Shown piece by piece: positions 11,345 to 38,619 of a stretch of 64,000 nucleotides of DNA. Every line of letters starts with the position of its first letter. Position 1 is the stretch's first letter. Where the stretch lies: the IMG/VR virus record IMGVR_UViG_3300010049_000009, positions 256,001-320,000 of that record. One strand, written 5' to 3'. This stretch comes from a virus. Its lineage: Duplodnaviria > Heunggongvirae > Uroviricota > Caudoviricetes. Position numbers and translations under genes: made by a program. Under the pieces are notes generated by a model. The model did not search any database and was not told where the DNA came from. It worked only from the letters and a program-made list of their open reading frames with translations.

Positions 11345-11803
11345 ATGACACATCGGGAATTATGCAAAGCCGGAGCATCATTTATGAAACGGTACGGTAT
11401 TGCAAAGTGGGAAAAACCCACATATGTAGTATGCGAATTAGAACGTTGCGGAGAATCCCCTGATGTATTTGGTTTCGGTGGTGCGCGCACACAATTAATT
11501 GAGGTCAAAACATCACGTGCAGATTTTCTTGCCGACAAAAAGAAACTTTGGCGAATAAATCCCGAAATGGGTTTGGGTGAATTGCGGTCCTTTCTTTGTA
11601 TGGAAGGTCTTATTTTAGAAGGAGAGTTGCCGCTGAATTGGGGTCTATTATATTGTGACAACAAACAGAGGATCGGATTAATTCGCGAACCATATATTCA
11701 AGCAGCGTGTTCGTATCAAGAAATGAATCTTGCTGCGTCAGTGTTGAGAAGAGAGGGGGTAAAGTCAAAAATTTTTTCATATAAAAAATATAAAAATGAA
11801 TAG
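11345..11803 (+). CDS. PD-(D/E)XK / MmcB-like nuclease-fold protein
   Basis: E.PDVFGF...LIEVKTSRADFLAD..K...ELP..WGLL. Confidence 0.7.
   Translation: MTHRELCKAGASFMKRYGIAKWEKPTYVVCELERCGESPDVFGFGGARTQLIEVKTSRADFLADKKKLWRINPEMGLGELRSFLCMEGLILEGELPLNWGLLYCDNKQRIGLIREPYIQAACSYQEMNLAASVLRREGVKSKIFSYKKYKNE
11672..11698 (+). promoter_or_regulatory. phage promoter ATCGGA-N15-TATATT (intragenic, upstream of sigma genes)
   Basis: ATCGGA 11672-11677, TATATT 11693-11698. Confidence 0.6.
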
Positions 11804-23188: not shown

Positions 23189-23585
23189 TGGCACTGATTA
23201 TCTAAAACGATTTAACGAATTATCTGCTTACAACCGCCAAAGAGGTGTAATAAAAGAAGAGCGGAATCAGTTGGATATGGTAAAAAAAATTGTGAAATTT
23301 TTAAATGATAATTATACTCCCGGTGAAACCACCACAGTAACTATTGATGGACGCGTTACCAAAAAAAAGGTTATCGGTATACGAGCAAATGATAGTAAAA
23401 ACATAAATTTAATGGTTGCACAAATCTCACCATTAGATGTTTTCTTTCGTGTTGAAGAAGAATTTAAAGGTGATATTGAAAAATCCAAAAAGCGGGATAT
23501 ATTTTTGAAGAACGTGATAATTGATTGGTTCAATGGGTTCGATGGTTTAAAAAATGGTATCCTTTCAAAAAATTTATCATACTAA
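23181..23585 (+). CDS. probable head-packaged protein
   Basis: Leader YLKRFNELSAY...VIKEE. Confidence 0.55.
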   Translation: MYNGTDYLKRFNELSAYNRQRGVIKEERNQLDMVKKIVKFLNDNYTPGETTTVTIDGRVTKKKVIGIRANDSKNINLMVAQISPLDVFFRVEEEFKGDIEKSKKRDIFLKNVIIDWFNGFDGLKNGILSKNLSY

Positions 23586-29046: not shown

Positions 29047-30201
29047 ATGAATAGTATAGTAAAAACGATTAGTAGCGAATACGTAAGTAGTGGACACCCC
29101 GATAAAATGGCGGATTGGATTGCAGATGCAATTGTGGATGCATGTCTCAGAGAAGACCCAAACTCTCGTTGTGGAGTTGAAGTAATGGTAAAAGATAACA
29201 TAGTTGTCTTGGGTGGCGAAATAAAAACGAACGCGGTTAAAACAAACTTTGAAAACATTGTAAAAGATACGTATGCAATTTTGGCTTTTCCTCATAACCA
29301 TAATCTTGATCCTTCAAACATTAAGGTTATAAACTTGATTGGAAAACAATCCGTTGAAATCAACCAAGGAGTTGATAGGGAAGATGGTGAAATCGGGGCT
29401 GGAGACCAGGGTCACGTTTGGGGTTATGCTTCTAACGACACAGATGTTTTTATGCCGTTAGGACATTACATTGCCAAAAAAATTGCAAACTATGTGTCAA
29501 AACAACCATTTTTGGGTCCTGACACAAAAAGTCAAGTTATTGTTAATGAAAGCGCAACCGGAAAAGAAGTAACCTATATTTTGGTAAGTACAATGCACCA
29601 AGTATTAACCCTCGATGAGGTGCGTGACCAAGTGCGCCAAATGATACTTACAAACGAAATGGGGTTAAGTGAAGATATATTCAAAAAATATATCAACTCA
29701 GTCATTAAGATTGATGTCAATCCATGCGGAAGTTGGAATGTGGGTGGACCCGTGAGTGATGCGGGTGTTACGGGAAGAAAATTGGTAGTAGATGCCTTCG
29801 GTGGTTATGCAAGAATTGGTGGGGGTGCTACCAGCGGCAAAGATATGTCAAAGGTTGATAGGTCTGCCCAATACGCCTGTCGTTGGTTAGCGAAAAATAT
29901 TGTGGCGGCAGGTATCGCCGACACTGCCGAAGTTGGATTAAGTTATGCAATTGGTGTAGTAGAACCTTGTTCAATCAACATTGAATTGAATAGAAACCAA
30001 GAACTTGTACCGGCAATATTGGAATACATTGTAAGAAACGTCAGATTGACCCCAAAAGCAATTATGGAGAGATTTGATTTCGCAAACCCACGATTTGAAA
30101 TAGTTACCTGTGAGGGTGCATATGGACACAATGACAATTCCATAACATTTCCTTGGGAGAATTTGAATCTCAAATATGATTTAGTAGGTTTGTTAAAATA
30201 A
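29047..30201 (+). CDS. metK: S-adenosylmethionine synthetase
   Basis: GHPDK, GAGDQG, D.KSQV, GGP..DAGVTGRK, GGGA.SGKD.SKVDRS. Confidence 0.96.
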   Translation: MNSIVKTISSEYVSSGHPDKMADWIADAIVDACLREDPNSRCGVEVMVKDNIVVLGGEIKTNAVKTNFENIVKDTYAILAFPHNHNLDPSNIKVINLIGKQSVEINQGVDREDGEIGAGDQGHVWGYASNDTDVFMPLGHYIAKKIANYVSKQPFLGPDTKSQVIVNESATGKEVTYILVSTMHQVLTLDEVRDQVRQMILTNEMGLSEDIFKKYINSVIKIDVNPCGSWNVGGPVSDAGVTGRKLVVDAFGGYARIGGGATSGKDMSKVDRSAQYACRWLAKNIVAAGIADTAEVGLSYAIGVVEPCSINIELNRNQELVPAILEYIVRNVRLTPKAIMERFDFANPRFEIVTCEGAYGHNDNSITFPWENLNLKYDLVGLLK

Positions 30202-30218
30202 ATATATGTTTGTATCTG

Positions 30219-30256
30219 AACCCCCATTTTTGGAAAATTAAGAATGGGGGTTTTTT
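30219..30256 (+). terminator. intrinsic terminator after metK
   Basis: AACCCCCATT...AATGGGGGTT followed by a T tract. Confidence 0.85.
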
Positions 30257-30259
30257 AAA

Positions 30260-30282
30260 ATGATTATCCGCAATAATACCCC
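30260..30282 (+). repeat. 23-bp motif copy 1 ATGATTATCCGCAATAATACCCC(GAA)
   Basis: Read directly from the sequence. Confidence 0.9.
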
Positions 30283-30299
30283 GAAAAATCCGAAAACAG

Positions 30300-30326
30300 A
30301 TCGGATAAATAACTTCTATTTATATT
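30300..30326 (+). promoter_or_regulatory. composite promoter: ATCGGA-N15-TATATT overlapping CTATTTATA (30316-30324)
   Basis: Both phage promoter motifs lie upstream of the ATG at 30336. Confidence 0.7.
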
Positions 30327-30335
30327 AGGGGTAAA

Positions 30336-31196
30336 ATGATAAAATTTAGTGATATGACAAATGAACAAAAAATAATAGTAGAAGCGGCAGCGAAACGTTT
30401 CCAAACTTTATCCGGTGTGGATAACATTATAATAAAGGAAAGTAACGTGAATAGAATTAGACATTGGGTAACAACCAAAGAAATTGCTATTATTAGTGGT
30501 TGGCGCGATGAAATAAAAGATGTTGTTTCAAACACCGAAAATCAGTGGGATATTGAAAATGTGGGTACAAAACTTACCACAAGTGAAAAAAAAGTAAGAA
30601 ATAGAGAATTAAAATCTACGTTATCTACTTTAGAATATGGTATAACACCAATCAAAGGTAATTTTTGGGAACGATACGGAACAAATAATCAAGTTGAAGT
30701 TAGAGAAGACTCCTACTTTGTTGTTAATTTGAATGATGACCCTAATTTTTTCAAAAATATTTTTGAACTCGGTGTTTATTATAATCAAGACGCTATACTA
30801 CATTCACCAAAAGGTAGTATTGAAGGGTCTTTAATTGGTACTAATAATTGTGAGTATTTTGGATATGGAACCAAAAGAAAAGCAGGAAATTTCATGTCCA
30901 ATGTTGAAAGTGAATTTATGAGTAGAATTGGGAGTATGGGTTTTAGTTTTGTTGAAAAAGAAAAAACAAGAAAAGATTCTAAACCAACTTTTGATGATAG
31001 AAAAAAAATAAGAACTGATAATAATGGTGTTGTATCCAACAAAGATATATCAGAAAGTTTAGACGTAGTATTCACACTTGGATTTGCTGCAAGACATTTA
31101 TGTAATGAAGAAGCGAGAAAAATCTTAATTCCATTAGGGTTAACAAATGAAGGAAAACGAATTGGGTATAAAAATTATCGTAATTTTTTAGTTTAA
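30336..31196 (+). CDS. T3 SAMase-like SAM lyase candidate with head-targeting leader
   Basis: IAIISGWR...RNRELKSTL...GNFWE...REDSYFV...LGVYYNQDAIL parallels my recollection of T3 gp0.3 (VSAFR...GCYRE...EEKTVRV...WEQDCVL). Confidence 0.6.
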   Translation: MIKFSDMTNEQKIIVEAAAKRFQTLSGVDNIIIKESNVNRIRHWVTTKEIAIISGWRDEIKDVVSNTENQWDIENVGTKLTTSEKKVRNRELKSTLSTLEYGITPIKGNFWERYGTNNQVEVREDSYFVVNLNDDPNFFKNIFELGVYYNQDAILHSPKGSIEGSLIGTNNCEYFGYGTKRKAGNFMSNVESEFMSRIGSMGFSFVEKEKTRKDSKPTFDDRKKIRTDNNGVVSNKDISESLDVVFTLGFAARHLCNEEARKILIPLGLTNEGKRIGYKNYRNFLV

Positions 31197-31213
31197 CAAA
31201 TGAAAGGGATAAT

Positions 31214-31236
31214 GGGGTATAATTGCGGATAATCAT
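31214..31236 (-). repeat. 23-bp motif copy 2 (rc ATGATTATCCGCAATTATACCCC)
   Basis: GGGGTATAATTGCGGATAATCAT on the + strand. Confidence 0.9.
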
Positions 31237-31244
31237 ATTTTTTT

Positions 31245-31253
31245 CTATTTATA
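31245..31253 (+). promoter_or_regulatory. putative late promoter CTATTTATA
   Basis: Upstream of the ATG at 31260. Confidence 0.6.
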
Positions 31254-31259
31254 TGTATT

Positions 31260-32090
31260 ATGAATATGATAGAACAAAATTTTCTTGTGGAAAGTAGTAA
31301 TAATTATTTAGATAAATTCCAATTCATATTAGGATATAATCCCGCAAAGGGTGGGCAACTTAACGAATCATACCATAGTGAATACCGTGGTTATACTAAC
31401 GTGGGGTTTGTTAAAGACGGTAATCAGTGGACAGCAAAGGGTGGTGATGCATATTTGTTTGTTAATCCCGATCTTCCCGAACACGTGCGTTTTAAGTTCT
31501 TAACAGATAAAGACCTTAATGCTAATTATATTAGTCAACTACCAATATCATTATCGTCAGCTCGTGTAACATTATATCCCGAATATGTGGGAACAATTTA
31601 TGACGAATTAATTAATGGAAAACCAAAAACCGAAGAGGATAAAGAAGCGGATTTGGTTAAACATAAAGAGTTCATGGCAAAATTGAATATCCAAAAAGGG
31701 AGGGTGGTTTTACTACACACTTCCCCACATAGAATTACAGACGGATACATTAAATCAGGTATAAAAAATAATTGGACACCAAACAACGCACAAGGTGGAA
31801 TATTCTTTTGGGCAACCAAAGAACGAGGAATTGATGCAAGCGGTGGTAATTACCATTACTATTGTGCTCTTCCTATTGGCGAAGTATATGATGGTAAAAA
31901 CAACCCGGAAGATTTTAAAGACGATTATGAAGCATTGGAAAAAGGATACAAAGTAATTGTTAATGAATGGAAACAAGGTGGTGTAAGCGGCGGATTTGCT
32001 GCGTATGGATTCACCAAAATACCAATTCCAATAACAATTATCAAATACGAAGGGAAACTATACGATTCCGAATGGAATGAAAAAAAATAA
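31260..32090 (+). CDS. probable head-packaged protein, possible ADP-ribosyltransferase-like C-domain
   Basis: Leader YLDKFQFILGY...QLNES; C-domain LLHTS...GGIFFWA...Y. Confidence 0.4.
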   Translation: MNMIEQNFLVESSNNYLDKFQFILGYNPAKGGQLNESYHSEYRGYTNVGFVKDGNQWTAKGGDAYLFVNPDLPEHVRFKFLTDKDLNANYISQLPISLSSARVTLYPEYVGTIYDELINGKPKTEEDKEADLVKHKEFMAKLNIQKGRVVLLHTSPHRITDGYIKSGIKNNWTPNNAQGGIFFWATKERGIDASGGNYHYYCALPIGEVYDGKNNPEDFKDDYEALEKGYKVIVNEWKQGGVSGGFAAYGFTKIPIPITIIKYEGKLYDSEWNEKK

Positions 32091-32153
32091 AATCATTTGT
32101 TATTTTTATAAATAATATGTATTTTTTGGATGAAATTTTAAACATAATCCAAA

Positions 32154-32606
32154 ATGACATTTTTAACAGCATGTGAAATTAGAAACGCCTATCCCGAAGG
32201 GATTGAAATATCGGCGTATGGTGTGGACACATACAGTGGTATGAGAAAGTATGGGGCTATGATGTATATGTTAAAAGACGGTTTCATACATAAAACATTG
32301 TTGGAACTCAGTGCTGATTTTAAAACACCTGAGGAAGCGGAAGAATTTTTACATAAAGAAGCGCAGGAGGTTGTCGAATTTGTAAATAAGAAATTAAACA
32401 ATGAATTACCCAAAGAAGAACCACCCACTAAAAAAACCTTTGTGGTTATGATGGAAGATAGTGGACCCGGTTCATTGGGAAAACCCGCAAGAGTTTATGA
32501 AGATGAAGAAGAAGCAGAAACCTATGCAAAGGAAATGGATGAAATAGATAATACATATTCTTATTGGGTTGAAGAATGTTTTTTTATTGCAAAAACAAAT
32601 GATTAA
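32154..32606 (+). CDS. hypothetical protein
   Basis: 150-aa acidic ORF. Confidence 0.7.
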   Translation: MTFLTACEIRNAYPEGIEISAYGVDTYSGMRKYGAMMYMLKDGFIHKTLLELSADFKTPEEAEEFLHKEAQEVVEFVNKKLNNELPKEEPPTKKTFVVMMEDSGPGSLGKPARVYEDEEEAETYAKEMDEIDNTYSYWVEECFFIAKTND

Positions 32607-32823
32607 AAAAGATTTTCCAACCGTAAAAGAGGTTATTTCTGAATTAGAACTGTATAACCCCGAAGCGCACGTTTGTTCCATTGCGTTCAAAAGGCGGTGG
32701 GGTTTCACCGTTGATTACGGTGGTTTTGTTGACGTAAAATGTTCAGACGATATTACTAAAAAAAATTGTACTATGGTCTATTTGAATATAGATGATTTGA
32801 ATGATATGAAACTAAAAGAATAA
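32599..32823 (+). CDS. hypothetical protein
   Basis: PTVKEVISELELYNPEA.V motif; ATG at 32599. Confidence 0.6.
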   Translation: MIKKDFPTVKEVISELELYNPEAHVCSIAFKRRWGFTVDYGGFVDVKCSDDITKKNCTMVYLNIDDLNDMKLKE

Positions 32824-33017
32824 CAAATAGAAAAAAGTTCTACATATTTTGGCAATAAATGAAAAAAGTGCCAAAATATAGTGGTAACTATTTGAAAAGT
32901 CTTTTTGAAAATTAATTTATTTATAGTAAGTTTATAAATAAATGATTGTTCCATGAGCCAAATTGAACTTGAAACAATCGTTTTTTGACAACATAAAGGT
33001 AAAAATTAGAAATATGA

Positions 33018-33713
33018 ATGTTAAAAAATGATATTTATGGAGACGGGTACAGTGAATATGTTAAATCCATTTCAAAGTTTAAACCCCTATCTATCGAAGA
33101 AGAGAAAGAAAACCTTCTTCTATATAAAACAACGGGTGATGAAAAATATCGCAACCGTATTTTAGAAGCAAATCTAAAATATGTTGTTAAGGTGGCAAAC
33201 CAATATAAACAATATGGTATTCCAATCATTCAACTTATATCAGAGGGGAATGAGGGATTACTTTACGCTATTGATAAATTTGATTACGAAAAAGCAAATG
33301 TTAAAATAATTTCCTATGCAACACATTGGATTAGATATAGAATTAGTTCCGCTGTAACAGAAATAACAAAACAAAATGTGGAATTTAAGGAAGGTTATGA
33401 ACAAACAAAAAAGTTTTCAACCGAAACAGAATACACAAATTATTATCAATCCCACCCACTATTAGATAACGAACCCGATAGAACCGACAATAATATTAAA
33501 ATAACAGAACAATTAACTGCGTGTTTAAGCGACAGAGAATTAAATGTTATTAAAAAATTATTCGGAATTGATACCGAAGAAAAAACTATAAAAGAAATAT
33601 CACACGAAATGGCGTTATCACAAGAACGTGTTTCTCAACTTCGTGATAAAGCGATTCTCAAAATGCAATCAGCGGCATTGGTTAATAACATCAATTATTA
33701 TAGCGAATATTGA
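33018..33713 (+). CDS. RNA polymerase sigma70-family factor (sigma-3)
   Basis: ILEANLKYVVKVANQY, LISEGNEGL, SYATHWIR, LSDRE...LSQERVSQLRDKAI. Confidence 0.92.
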   Translation: MLKNDIYGDGYSEYVKSISKFKPLSIEEEKENLLLYKTTGDEKYRNRILEANLKYVVKVANQYKQYGIPIIQLISEGNEGLLYAIDKFDYEKANVKIISYATHWIRYRISSAVTEITKQNVEFKEGYEQTKKFSTETEYTNYYQSHPLLDNEPDRTDNNIKITEQLTACLSDRELNVIKKLFGIDTEEKTIKEISHEMALSQERVSQLRDKAILKMQSAALVNNINYYSEY

Positions 33714-33721
33714 GAGAAAAA

Positions 33722-33730
33722 CTATTTATA
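33722..33730 (+). promoter_or_regulatory. putative late promoter CTATTTATA
   Basis: Upstream of the ATG at 33744 (operon with GH19). Confidence 0.6.
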
Positions 33731-33743
33731 AGAAAATAAAATA

Positions 33744-34328
33744 ATGACACATCAACAGGAAAAAGCGTTTAACTATATTTATACGGTTGCTGACGGATAT
33801 AGAAGGGTATTACCACTTTTAAACGTAATAGATAACCCCAAATTACACCATTATAACAAATTCTATAAAGATATTAGAAGCACCGAAACAATGATAGGTG
33901 GTATCAATTGGAATGGTTGGAATGAAATAGATAAGTTGGTTTCACTTTTTCCAAATGAAATAGACGCACTAGGAAGATCATGGGATTTTAGAGATATTAA
34001 ACATTTAGTCTTCACAGCATATAAAACTATATGGGAAAATAATAACCCCAACTTCGATATACAAACTTATCCCGCCGACTTTAACATAGATATTCAAATG
34101 TTTGATGCTTATTTATTATCCCCCAATTGCTTTACAAGTGTGCGTAACATAATAGTAGGTGGAAATTATCATAATGATATGCGGCGATACAATAATATCG
34201 TTAGAGACGCTAAAATAGCGTACATAAGAAAAATAGAGTTACCCGAATGGAATAGACAAGATTCCACTTCCAAAACAACACTGAAAGAAAAGTGGTACAG
34301 TAGAATAAAAATGATTGAACAACTATAA
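33744..34328 (+). CDS. hypothetical protein
   Basis: 194-aa ORF preceding the GH19 gene. Confidence 0.7.
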   Translation: MTHQQEKAFNYIYTVADGYRRVLPLLNVIDNPKLHHYNKFYKDIRSTETMIGGINWNGWNEIDKLVSLFPNEIDALGRSWDFRDIKHLVFTAYKTIWENNNPNFDIQTYPADFNIDIQMFDAYLLSPNCFTSVRNIIVGGNYHNDMRRYNNIVRDAKIAYIRKIELPEWNRQDSTSKTTLKEKWYSRIKMIEQL

Positions 34329-34332
34329 TATT

Positions 34333-35097
34333 ATGATACTGACATCCGAAATTATGAGAAATATCATTGGGAATGGTAACGCTGAACCATATATAACACA
34401 TTTGAACACTTACATGGGGCAGTTTGATATTAATACCCTTCCAAGAATATGTTTTTTTCTTGCAATTGCTTGTGGGGAAACAGGTGGTTTTCGTTCAATA
34501 ACAGAAAACATGAATTACACAAGTGCTGATAGAATAAGACAGGTTTTTGGTGCAAGTAGATTTCAGAATGTGAATATGGAAGATTTTATTAGAAATGAAA
34601 GAGCACTCGCTAATAAAGTATATGGTGGAAAATATGGAAATGGATCAACCAATGATGATGGATATATCTACCGCGGTGGTGGGATATTTCAATTAACATT
34701 TAAAGAAAATTATCAAAGATTTTCACGTTCTTCCGGTATCCCTATTGAAAATTTAACAAATCCTAATCACGATGATTATATTCGCAAACCACGCGGTGCT
34801 GTCCGCTCTGCTTGTCATTACGCAAAAGATAGAAGGTTATTAGAAGAAGCAGATAAAAACACACCCGAAAGTTTTATCGCTGCGTGTAGAAAGGTGGGGA
34901 ATTGTCCTGACGGTGATAATTACAAAAAGAAACGCGATTATTGGGCAAAATGTAAGGCACATATCGGCGGTGACGGTGTGGTAGAACACAACACACAAAG
35001 TAGTTGGCGCAACACGGGGATTGCACACCTTCATGCATTTGACGGATTGAATGTATATTTACAAGCACAACAACAAAAAGCATCAGTTGTCAAATAA
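34333..35097 (+). CDS. glycoside hydrolase family 19 lysozyme/endolysin
   Basis: FLA...ETGGF...ENMNY, LANKVYG...GN...DGYIYRG.G.FQLT.KENY. Confidence 0.85.
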   Translation: MILTSEIMRNIIGNGNAEPYITHLNTYMGQFDINTLPRICFFLAIACGETGGFRSITENMNYTSADRIRQVFGASRFQNVNMEDFIRNERALANKVYGGKYGNGSTNDDGYIYRGGGIFQLTFKENYQRFSRSSGIPIENLTNPNHDDYIRKPRGAVRSACHYAKDRRLLEEADKNTPESFIAACRKVGNCPDGDNYKKKRDYWAKCKAHIGGDGVVEHNTQSSWRNTGIAHLHAFDGLNVYLQAQQQKASVVK

Positions 35098-35105
35098 TAT
35101 TTAAA

Positions 35106-35127
35106 ATGATTATCCGCAATTATACCC
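35106..35127 (+). repeat. motif copy 3 ATGATTATCCGCAATTATACCC
   Basis: Identical to the rc of copy 2 over 22 nt. Confidence 0.9.
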
Positions 35128-35157
35128 TTAATGGGTATCCAAGTGATAAAGATTTTA

Positions 35158-35180
35158 ATGATTATCCGTAATAATACCCC
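35158..35180 (+). repeat. motif copy 4 ATGATTATCCGTAATAATACCCC
   Basis: One mismatch to copy 1. Confidence 0.88.
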
Positions 35181-35185
35181 CCCAC

Positions 35186-35788
35186 TTATTTTATCAAAAA
35201 TCGTTTATTTTTGACACCTTCTATGAACTTTTCTTTTGTTATTGAATAAGAATGGTTTGATTTATCTACAAATTTTGCCCTTGTTCTATCTTCATTCAAA
35301 CCAATATATTTCAAGTTTAAATTGCGACCTGTTTCAAATAACATATCACCAACTTTTATTTTTTTAGATTCGCCTGCCACACAATATCTTTCTTGCCTGG
35401 CGTATTGTTCTTCCCCAAATTCATGTTTATAAATTTCATTTTGTCGTTCTATAGCTTCATCTTCCCATAGTTTGCGTTTATATAGAAATTCTATTATTTT
35501 TTCGATTTTTTCATGATCATATTTACACAAATCATAATTGTATCCATATTTATTATAATCATAATCTTCTTCTAATTCAGGAAATTTTTCTATTAATATA
35601 TGATGTAATGCTTCTACTTTGACTATAAGCCATTCTAAACCATCATCTAACCTAAACCAATGATTATTATATTCATCTTTTGGTGGGTCTGGGTAGTCAA
35701 TAGAGTCTTCATAATCATTAAATTCATTCAAGTTTCTTTTGACCACCTCTTCAATAATGCTACGTAATTGTTGTTTTGTTATTTTCAT
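35186..35788 (-). CDS. probable head-packaged hypothetical protein (cassette 2 cargo)
   Basis: Leader MKITKQQLRSIIEEVVKRNLNE; late promoter upstream. Confidence 0.65.
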   Translation of the reverse strand: MKITKQQLRSIIEEVVKRNLNEFNDYEDSIDYPDPPKDEYNNHWFRLDDGLEWLIVKVEALHHILIEKFPELEEDYDYNKYGYNYDLCKYDHEKIEKIIEFLYKRKLWEDEAIERQNEIYKHEFGEEQYARQERYCVAGESKKIKVGDMLFETGRNLNLKYIGLNEDRTRAKFVDKSNHSYSITKEKFIEGVKNKRFLIK

Positions 35789-35805
35789 ATTATATTAGAT
35801 TTTAA

Positions 35806-35814
35806 TATAAATAG
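35806..35814 (-). promoter_or_regulatory. putative late promoter CTATTTATA
   Basis: TATAAATAG on the + strand, inside cassette 2. Confidence 0.6.
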
Positions 35815-35833
35815 ATATACAAGTGAAAAATTC

Positions 35834-35856
35834 GGGGTACTATTGCGGATTATCAT
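35834..35856 (-). repeat. motif copy 5 (rc ATGATAATCCGCAATAGTACCCC-GAA)
   Basis: TTCGGGGTACTATTGCGGATTATCAT on the + strand. Confidence 0.88.
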
Positions 35857-35895
35857 TTAATATTTGTATATTTATTACAAATAAAATCCAATAAT

Positions 35896-37779: not shown

Positions 37780-38619
37780 TTAACTTTGTAAAGGGTTAAA
37801 CATTTTTGATTTTAATGATTTTCCACCGCCGCTTCCAATATCATGTGAAACTGTTGGAACACTTTGTTTCTTGGTGTCGTTTAGATAATCACTAATCATT
37901 TCATCTAAATTAATTTTTCTACTTTCCGTTTGTGGTGGCGGTGCAGCATTTGGGTCTTCTTCCATAGGTATTTCACCACCTTCCATACCGGGGTCCATTG
38001 CCATATTCGGGTCTTCTTCCATTCCACCCATATCATCCATACCTTCATCACCACCTTTTGCTTTAAGGACTCCTTCGGCATATTTTTTCACCGCCTCTAT
38101 TGTTTCAGGGTCAGCTGATTGTAATATTCCCATTAATGCGCTTATGTTGGGGTCTTCTTCACCACCCTCCATACCGGGGTCCATTGCCATATTCGGGTCC
38201 TCTTCCATTCCCATATTTGGGTCTTCCATTGGCATTTCTTCACCACCTTCCATACCGGGGTCCATTGCCATATTCGGGTCTTCTTCCATTGGTGGTTCTT
38301 GTGAAGGAACAACAATAACATCTCTTTCTGTTAGCAAATTCATAACATTTACAGATTCACCCAATCTACCCTTGGTCGTCATCATTGAATAGTTAAACCC
38401 ACGACTACCACCAAGTGCTTGATCCATCCAATACTGATTTCTCACAGTCGTTGGTTCAATTGGTGATTTGGTTCCCGAACTGTCGCCCTCAACCTTACCA
38501 ACAGTTGAAGTACCACCTTCTGACGAATCACAATGAGTTTTGTAAGGATTATCAACATCTAAATATTCATATTCATCACCCTCATTCAATTTTAATGCTA
38601 TTTTAATAGGATTATTCAT
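37780..38619 (-). CDS. acidic repeat-containing head/scaffold-like protein
   Basis: LKLNE leader; three EEDPNMAMDPGMEGG repeats. Confidence 0.55.
   Translation of the reverse strand: MNNPIKIALKLNEGDEYEYLDVDNPYKTHCDSSEGGTSTVGKVEGDSSGTKSPIEPTTVRNQYWMDQALGGSRGFNYSMMTTKGRLGESVNVMNLLTERDVIVVPSQEPPMEEDPNMAMDPGMEGGEEMPMEDPNMGMEEDPNMAMDPGMEGGEEDPNISALMGILQSADPETIEAVKKYAEGVLKAKGGDEGMDDMGGMEEDPNMAMDPGMEGGEIPMEEDPNAAPPPQTESRKINLDEMISDYLNDTKKQSVPTVSHDIGSGGGKSLKSKMFNPLQS
37972..38290. repeat. three ~52-bp intragenic direct repeats
   Basis: Copies at about 37972-38023, 38158-38209 and 38239-38290 (TTCACCACCYTCCATACCGGGGTCCATTGCCATATTCGGGTCYTCTTCCATT). Confidence 0.9.

Follow-up and report, generated by a model that had tools for sequence, protein, structure and literature searches.

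In the present work, we examine a set of short inverted repeats, and the single-gene cassettes that they bound, in a 64,000-nucleotide stretch of phage DNA (positions 256,001 to 320,000 of IMG/VR record IMGVR_UViG_3300010049_000009; hereafter the window). The window is G000:C1:256001-320000 of a complete phage genome, here called G000 (367,155 bp, direct terminal repeats, 33.6% G+C), which comes from termite-gut metagenome runs. A first-pass annotation of the window had described five copies of a 23-bp motif between 30260 and 35856 as the ends of a mobile or invertible cassette system, MITE-, shufflon- or integron-like, driven by a recombinase encoded elsewhere (MITE stands for miniature inverted-repeat transposable element). 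We will show that, judged by sequence, the repeats are the terminal inverted repeats (TIRs) of an insertion sequence (IS) of the IS1595 family, since the same 22-mer bounds bacterial transposase genes. We consider it probable, at roughly 85%, that these TIRs enclose transposase-less cassettes with phage-type genes, likely moved by a transposase supplied in trans.

Results and Discussion

The two cassettes of the window, A and B, and the sites around them are the following.

30260..30282 (+): left TIR of cassette A (copy 1), immediately following the T-run of a terminator-like hairpin behind metK
30300..30328 (+): promoter-like site of the ATCGGA...TATATT class, overlapping CTATTTATA (repeat families D2/D3/D8)
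30336..31196 (+): cargo A, 286 aa, with N-terminal leader
31214..31236 (-): right TIR of cassette A (copy 2)
35095..35102 (+): left 8-bp duplication TAATATTT, starting with the stop codon of a GH19-like endolysin gene
35106..35127 (+): outer TIR of cassette B (copy 3), the one of the two left ends that agrees with both duplication and empty site
35158..35180 (+): nested inner end (copy 4), whose best flank match with copy 5 is only 6/8
35186..35788 (-): cargo B, 200 aa, with leader
35806..35814 (-): late-promoter-like motif CTATTTATA of cargo B, a presumed promoter
35834..35856 (-): TIR at the 5' side of cargo B (copy 5)
35858..35865 (+): right 8-bp duplication TAATATTT

Cassette A is 977 bp long, and both its inward-facing ends have 0 mismatches to the consensus; the hairpin in front of it (30220-30256) was read by eye. 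Cassette B measures 751 bp, plus the nested extra end. The endolysin gene upstream of it matches phrog_181 (E=1.2e-41).

Number and pairing of the repeats

All five copies in the window were recovered with 0 mismatches (motif-match starts 30260+, 31215-, 35106+, 35158+ and 35835-), as the first-pass annotation had it. The chance expectation for the window is 0.01, and none of 100 shuffles reached five copies. Scanning the whole genome with up to three mismatches gave nine copies, and 0 for the reversed control; in a matrix scan the score falls from 31 to 20 bits after the ninth copy, and seven of the nine ends match the pattern exactly. The nine copies form four inward-facing pairs and one nested end. 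Four of them lie outside the window and make up two further pairs, both short.

G000:C1 69637-69808: short element 1, 172 bp, within a tRNA array
G000:C1 197450-197706: short element 2, 257 bp

These short elements hold open reading frames (ORFs) of about 46-55 aa and 67 aa whose 3' ends extend into the repeat, and an Rfam search over both returned tRNAs only.

Some details of the initial description hold and others do not. The copies in the window are indeed intergenic and lie in inward pairs around 30336-31196 (+) and 35186-35788 (-), but the second cassette has three ends rather than two. The identity of copies 2 and 3 over 22 nt was confirmed. The proposed polarity, with one kind of end at the 5' side of each cargo and another at the 3' side, had to be given up: among 28 oriented ends that were tabulated, AATAAT and AATTAT each occur at both sides, the 197-kb pair reads AATTAT at both ends, and copy 4, on a 3' side, reads AATAAT. 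All that is left of it is that cGAA follows copies 1 and 5, a coincidence of 3-4 nt. Each cassette was also said to carry its own promoter. CTATTTATA does lie inside both (30316-30324 + and 35806-35814 -), but the motif is not specific to cassettes, as 55 of the 471 ORFs have [CA]TATTTAT[AT] no more than 60 nt upstream, among them two genes immediately outside the cassettes.

Identity of the ends

The exact 22-mer was found in metagenome contigs, in 15 stretches on 14 contigs, and in species genomes, at 17 loci in 12 records (nine titled Bacteroidia, two "bacterium" and one Anaerotignum). A transposase flanked by the same ends, which the first-pass annotation had suggested looking for, is encoded just inside the 22-mer at eight loci (L002, L004, L008, L014, L019, L028, L031 and L033). 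The three of these transposases that were scanned all match PF12762 (DDE_Tnp_IS1595) above the cut-off, with E values from 2e-19 to 2e-16, and all three match the zinc ribbon PF12760, one of them above the cut-off. The same ends also bound pairs of MITE size (150-260 bp) and larger passenger-bearing elements. Two bacterial genomes contain 35 and 50 copies of the motif, against 0 for the reversed-pattern control, and with at most one mismatch it is present in 14 of 401 genomes from the order of G002. In 20 further bacterial regions there were MITE-size pairs, single ends and IS remnants, and no more phage-type cargo. The internal dyad of the motif would then belong to a transposase-binding end and not to a recombinase core. 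The elements may fall in the ISSod11-like subgroup of IS1595, a candidate placement from motifs.

Nine viral loci encode the same transposase, and three of them (L034, L035 and L038) have both ends and perfect duplications. The autonomous element at L034:3849-7889 carries an apparent cytosine methyltransferase and partner genes, and that at L035:3853-6157 splits a phage methyltransferase gene. In the viral-contig collection the exact motif has 0 matches, and the relaxed motif two weak, unpaired ones.

The phage itself appears to lack the enzyme. That there is no transposase in the window was already noted, and this extends to the complete genome, which has no match to an IS1595 transposase query or to PF12762. 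Nor did it contain any tyrosine (PF00589) or serine (PF00239) recombinase or resolvase; the search covered these three families and one transposase query, and no other recombinase or transposase families, and the PF00589 and PF00239 controls were positive in 14 and 13 of 14 genomes. The cassettes thus have two intact ends around a passenger gene and no transposase, as expected for mobile insertion cassettes (MICs), and they are not autonomous IS or transporter IS (tIS) elements, because no match to such a transposase was found anywhere in the phage. MICs and MITEs are described as open to activation by a cognate transposase (PMC3129680).

Target duplications and an empty site

Members of the IS1595 family are described as usually having 8-bp duplications and a zinc finger (PMC8101967). 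For MTnSag1 and tISCpe8, 25-bp ends, 8-bp duplications and A+T-rich targets are reported, and for MTnSag1 also a circular intermediate (PMC5704250).

A perfect 8-bp flanking repeat is present in 12 of 17 pairs, compared to 2 of 272 mismatched flank pairs, when a slack of 0-3 nt is allowed at each end, the better (outer) of the two left ends of cassette B is used, and the duplicates L005 and L026, the flankless L028 and the pairs of L022 and L027 are set aside. By chance, such a match is seen in 0.27% of intergenic pairs drawn at random, and in 0.75% if the pairs are A+T-rich. Three of the four phage pairs have it, and their duplications, TTTTTTAT, AAAAGTTA and TAATATTT, are A+T-rich and share no common sequence. 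Flanking duplications point to insertion rather than to site-specific recombination. For L024, L029, L031, L033 and L035, the duplication is 8 bp if the element is taken to end one base outside ATG/CAT; on that reading the phage elements require 7, 9 or 10 bp.

Empty sites at the metK and GH19 loci had been proposed as a check, and one was found at the latter. A minor contig of a related phage, 282 bp long and assembled at a depth of 4.1, has 86-88% identity to the window and connects 34971 with 35896, without the insert 35103-35865; the joint is also present in run X3, possibly the same data set. Only 161 letters lie between the two ends of the joint, so that the 763-bp insert cannot fit there. 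The corresponding gap in the window is 924 bp, from which removal of the 763 bp (element plus one duplication) leaves 161 bp. Because the related contig keeps exactly this predicted remainder, cassette B, as far as can be read from the two sequences, has moved as a unit. The 197-kb short element was removed in silico together with one duplication, and the upstream ORF is then closed by an in-frame stop. Copy 4 is likely a relic of an earlier insertion; a likeness to the reverse end in the 30 nt before it was considered and is weak and not convincing.

At metK, no clean empty site was found in a close relative. In three related jumbo phages, L047-L049, whose MetK is 54-57% identical, a homologue of the gene at 31260 comes next and there is no repeat; in L049 it adjoins metK, and in L047 and L048 an 87-aa ORF intervenes. 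The search for close phage relatives gave one distant locus by metK, in a different gene context, and none by cargo A or by the endolysin. On the termite contig L006, an end adjoins a gene 62% identical to the G000 ORF 120924, where G000 has no end.

Joints were sought in the contigs of five runs (X1, X2, X3, X5 and X6; X1 and X3 are possibly one data set), where the main contigs cover the window at a depth of about 47 and cross all five repeats. No strand-change joint was seen, which is weak evidence, as contigs lose rare variants. Cargo exchange at one fixed site was not seen either.

The cargo genes

Cargo A scores just under the cut-off of 28 bits against PF23780 (27 bits, E=4.8e-6), and there is no sequence-level match to it in the PDB. 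Its structure model has a predicted local distance difference test score (pLDDT) of 74.5, and its top seven PDB matches in Foldseek are S-adenosylmethionine (SAM) lyases, one of them at E<=0.001. The best is the T3 SAM lyase 8bb1 (E=1.3e-4, TMt 0.70). By its model, therefore, cargo A has a SAM-lyase fold. The T3 enzyme is described as countering type I restriction and BREX and as inhibiting and binding MetK (bioRxiv 10.1101/2023.02.27.530186). A putative anti-defence role of cargo A is a reasonable inference by analogy. Among GenBank phages, cargo A is closest to Prevotella Lak phages, with 34-35% identity (15 of 20 records).

The promoter and leader of cassette A are 85% identical over 127 bp to G000:C1:120172-120298, which belongs to a TIR-free paralogue. 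In this SAM-lyase-like gene (G000:C1:119506-120298), the first 21 codons are identical to those of cargo A at 60 of 63 nt, and the rest has about 34% protein identity. It looks from this alignment as if promoter and leader have recently been swapped between the two genes.

Cargo B has no match in Pfam or PHROGs, and its Atlas matches are all below 0.9. Its leader and C-terminal domain are common to two TIR-free genes of the same phage, the domain being 56% and 46% identical to the G000 ORFs at 23575 and 5837. A homologue lies inside a TIR end on the termite contig L016 (80% DNA identity over 191 bp), and the protein search gave only one other homologue. Because promoter, leader and domains are shared with TIR-free genes in the same phage, the sequences indicate that the cargo of the cassettes is phage-type DNA, native to this phage.

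Packaging of the cargo proteins into heads is putative, from the resemblance of the leaders and from a prohead protease that the phage encodes (PF03420, E=3e-19); the link between leader and late motif is only suggestive. In a crude test, with two leader patterns written after the cargo had been seen and so not blind, 3 of 7 non-G000 cargo genes matched (L002, L009 and L029, not L006, L016, L024 and L025), compared to 1 of 169 bacterial control ORFs; the patterns missed cargo A and matched only 3 of 471 G000 ORFs.

The same ends surround phage-type genes on other contigs. At L009, an 877-bp pair (flanks 7/8) encloses a DUF3293 gene that has 40% identity to a G000 gene without TIRs, and the flanks have no match in G000, Pfam or PHROGs. 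At L029:3088-4022, a transposase-less pair of 935 bp with a perfect 8-bp duplication lies beside ftsK on a bacterial contig and carries a PF23780 gene that scores above the cut-off. SAM-lyase-like genes are thus bounded by these ends three separate times, in the window, in L009 and in L029. The family of the L029 gene was sought in viral contigs and in one Pfam genome sample. The viral contigs hold 11 loci at 41-52% identity, six of them on contigs of more than 200 kb, and none with convincing ends; in the 401 genomes of the order of G002, PF23780 gave 0 matches, with a positive control that was silent too. L024:1875-3097 is another transposase-less pair on a bacterial contig, of low G+C and with a perfect 8-bp duplication, around a phage-like gene. 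This gene failed the leader test, and its phage origin is a matter of resemblance. The cargo of neither L029 nor L024 has a match among 50,697 GenBank phages. L002:83-2417 contains a transposase, a phage-leader gene, a small helix-turn-helix gene and, just inside the right end, the palindromic CTATTTATAAATAG. It is a candidate intermediate, or autonomous parent, carrying phage DNA within the same right end.

A few neighbouring features should also be recorded. The gene after metK in L047:2275-4392, L048:2164-4281 and L049:2176-5130 encodes a fusion of 705-984 aa with a 31260-type domain and two or three SAM-lyase/DUF3293-like domains. A SAM synthetase adjoining SAM-lyase-fold domains recurs with or without a cassette, including window 29047-32090. 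In L024, another short leader-like ORF lies on the opposite strand. The promoter-like ATCGGA-N-TATATT family precedes replication and metabolism genes and occurs in the window at 11658, 13950, 26612, 28899, 28969, 30299, 57506(-), 60635 and 62222. There are several sigma-like genes in the phage, of which 33018-33713 matches Sigma70 r2 and r4. Position 29370 of the window, in metK, is T in every run and A in the window, likely an assembly difference. The gene at 37780-38619 encodes an acidic protein rich in Met/Glu/Pro/Gly, with internal 55-nt repeats. At least eight G000:C1 ORFs share an N-terminal start FETNSSS (15662, 16382, 67302, 100311, 100905, 101780, 107329 and 243128).

Proposed mechanism and alternatives

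A DDE transposase binds the ends of its element and inserts it in A+T-rich DNA with an 8-bp duplication. Since the phage encodes none, the enzyme would be borrowed from a Bacteroidales host or from a co-infecting element, and supplied in trans. During infection, an IS copy or its ends may have landed in A+T-rich spots of the phage genome (stop codons, terminator T-runs, promoters) and captured the adjoining phage DNA, promoter and gene together. The captured element would have lost, or never had, the transposase gene, and the filled unit would then have transposed again. Such a capture would explain why insertions lie just behind gene ends with no need for a targeting device, why promoters are internal and a third end is nested, and why other phages and bacterial contigs have phage-type genes between these same ends.

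Several points weigh against this reading. The duplication count allowed slack at the ends, took the better left end of cassette B and set some pairs aside. Cassette A (best 6/8) and L004 (4/8) have no duplication, and five further short pairs, found later, have only 6-7/8. The slack varies between elements, 1-4 nt in sum, so that the ends of the elements can be placed only to within a few nt. The empty site comes from a single short contig, of which the sequence of the inner 161 letters was not displayed. A second copy of any phage cassette at another site was not found. Finally, SAM-lyase-like domains adjoin metK without repeats in L047-L049, and this linkage needs no cassette.

Cassette A has no duplication, so that its movement as a unit is presumed only. 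Two unrelated relics of IS ends might simply flank a resident SAM-lyase-fold gene, or the duplication might have been removed later by deletion or recombination, in which case the unit is not, or not now, mobile. The 6/8 flanks, the related phages with such domains by metK and the failure to find a close relative with an empty metK site speak for this. However, both ends have 0 mismatches and are oriented inward as in the three pairs with duplications, such ends also enclose related genes in L009 (7/8) and L029 (8/8), and metK of L049 runs directly into the 31260 homologue. We consider the resident gene distinctly the less probable account; cassette A probably has the same origin as the other cassettes, its duplication lost or never present. 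Harder to dismiss, with the odds only leaning against it, is the view that all the elements are dead fossils, true IS1595 derivatives that no longer move and exchange no genes at present. It shares the identity claim with the IS1595 cassette reading and differs from it only on present activity. Every cassette is single-copy, the interiors are mutually unrelated, the likeness to transposase-bearing elements stops at 22-23 bp, and no circle or excision joint was seen at a depth of about 47, in contigs only. On the other hand, seven of the nine ends are exact, three duplications are intact, contigs from the same scan contain transposase genes between the same ends, and the relative at 86-88% identity lacks cassette B, which means that the insertion postdates the split of the two phages.

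The remaining possibilities concern the nature of the repeats themselves. The inward, near-identical repeats with their internal dyad would suit an invertible segment (shufflon or phase variation) flipped by a site-specific recombinase of the host. But DDE transposase genes lie between these repeats elsewhere, target duplications flank them, the promoter lies inside each cassette, so that flipping would not switch the cargo, and the phage has no PF00589 or PF00239 match and the contigs of the five runs no strand-change joint. With the duplications and the empty site mostly ruling it out, inversion is very improbable. Of the mechanism first put forward, a mobile, MITE-like unit with its enzyme encoded elsewhere agrees with the IS1595 ends, the duplications and the empty site, while the shufflon and the integron do not; the latter fails on inverted pairs with duplications and on the lack of a tyrosine recombinase in the genome. 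A Xer/dif or pdif site was considered as well and rejected: the reverse strand of copy 3 is loosely XerD-arm-like, as compared by eye with a consensus, but there is no second arm to pair with it, and duplications are what a DDE transposase would leave. Least credible of all is an operator or promoter for a phage regulator, a simple explanation already envisaged in the first-pass annotation. The intergenic sites and the short dyad fit it. Eight of the nine copies, however, are in inward pairs, half of them at gene 3' ends, and the same sequence bounds bacterial IS elements and MITE-size pairs and reaches its 35 and 50 copies in two genomes; this origin of the motif was rejected.

Relation to known systems

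The closest counterparts of these IS1595-ended cassettes are the tIS elements of that family (MTnSag1/tISSag10, tISCpe8), which have imperfect TIRs of about 23 bp, 8-bp duplications, A+T-rich targets and passenger genes, and whose cognate elements encode transposases with a zinc ribbon and DDE_Tnp_IS1595. In contrast to these, the phage elements have no transposase and lie within a complete 367-kb phage, and they carry phage-type genes with phage promoter motifs instead of resistance genes. MIC231 (IS231/IS4 family) is likewise non-autonomous, end-bounded, gene-carrying and, as described, trans-activatable (PMC3129680). It differs in IS family and host phylum; here the helper would be outside the replicon and the cargo comes from the phage lineage. 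The MITEs shared by phages and hosts (PMC11602168) are transposase-less elements with TIRs and target-site duplications in viral genomes that point to the host, Bacteroidota included, and the short elements of G000 (172 and 257 bp) fit their size. In that work, however, whole MITEs are linked at >=95% identity, whereas in the present case the sharing is limited to the ends, and what lies between them is phage genes. The main text of that work never uses the words "passenger", "cargo" or "jumbo", and its tables might list such elements. As for the T3 SAM lyase (gp0.3), cargo A has its fold and adjoins the phage metK, but has about 15% identity to it, twice the length and an N-terminal leader. 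Shufflons and invertons, integron cassettes and pdif modules also have repeats around single genes, and use site-specific recombinases without target duplication. The ends described here, in contrast, belong to a DDE transposase, and duplications are present.

The IS1595 family, tIS elements, MICs, MITEs shared with phages, and IS-derived cassettes in bacterial chromosomes and plasmids are thus already known. In the literature searched, with few subscription papers and no supplements, we found nothing on IS1595 cassettes filled with phage genes, and no paper that combines "IS1595" and "jumbo phage". What is new is that one phage has four elements of one IS family, with native cargo and an empty site, and that a SAM-lyase-family gene on a bacterial contig is enclosed by the same ends, together with signs of phage-to-host traffic.

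Implications

The cassettes would offer such jumbo phages a homology-independent route to acquire and relocate accessory genes, a candidate anti-restriction enzyme among them. The L029 ends around a SAM-lyase-family gene suggest a route from an integrase-less phage into the host chromosome, and the 22-mer serves as a host marker (Bacteroidales) for an uncultured phage. More speculatively, and we regard this as possible but rather doubtful, the IS1595 transposase of the host may be a standing shuttle, by which single-gene cassettes of counter-defence or head-loaded genes with phage promoters hop between related Bacteroidales jumbo phages and into host chromosomes. In its boldest form, if true, chromosomal copies would be kept because infection switches them on, and a phage anti-defence gene would become a SAM-depleting defence of the host, or a passenger in the heads of the progeny.

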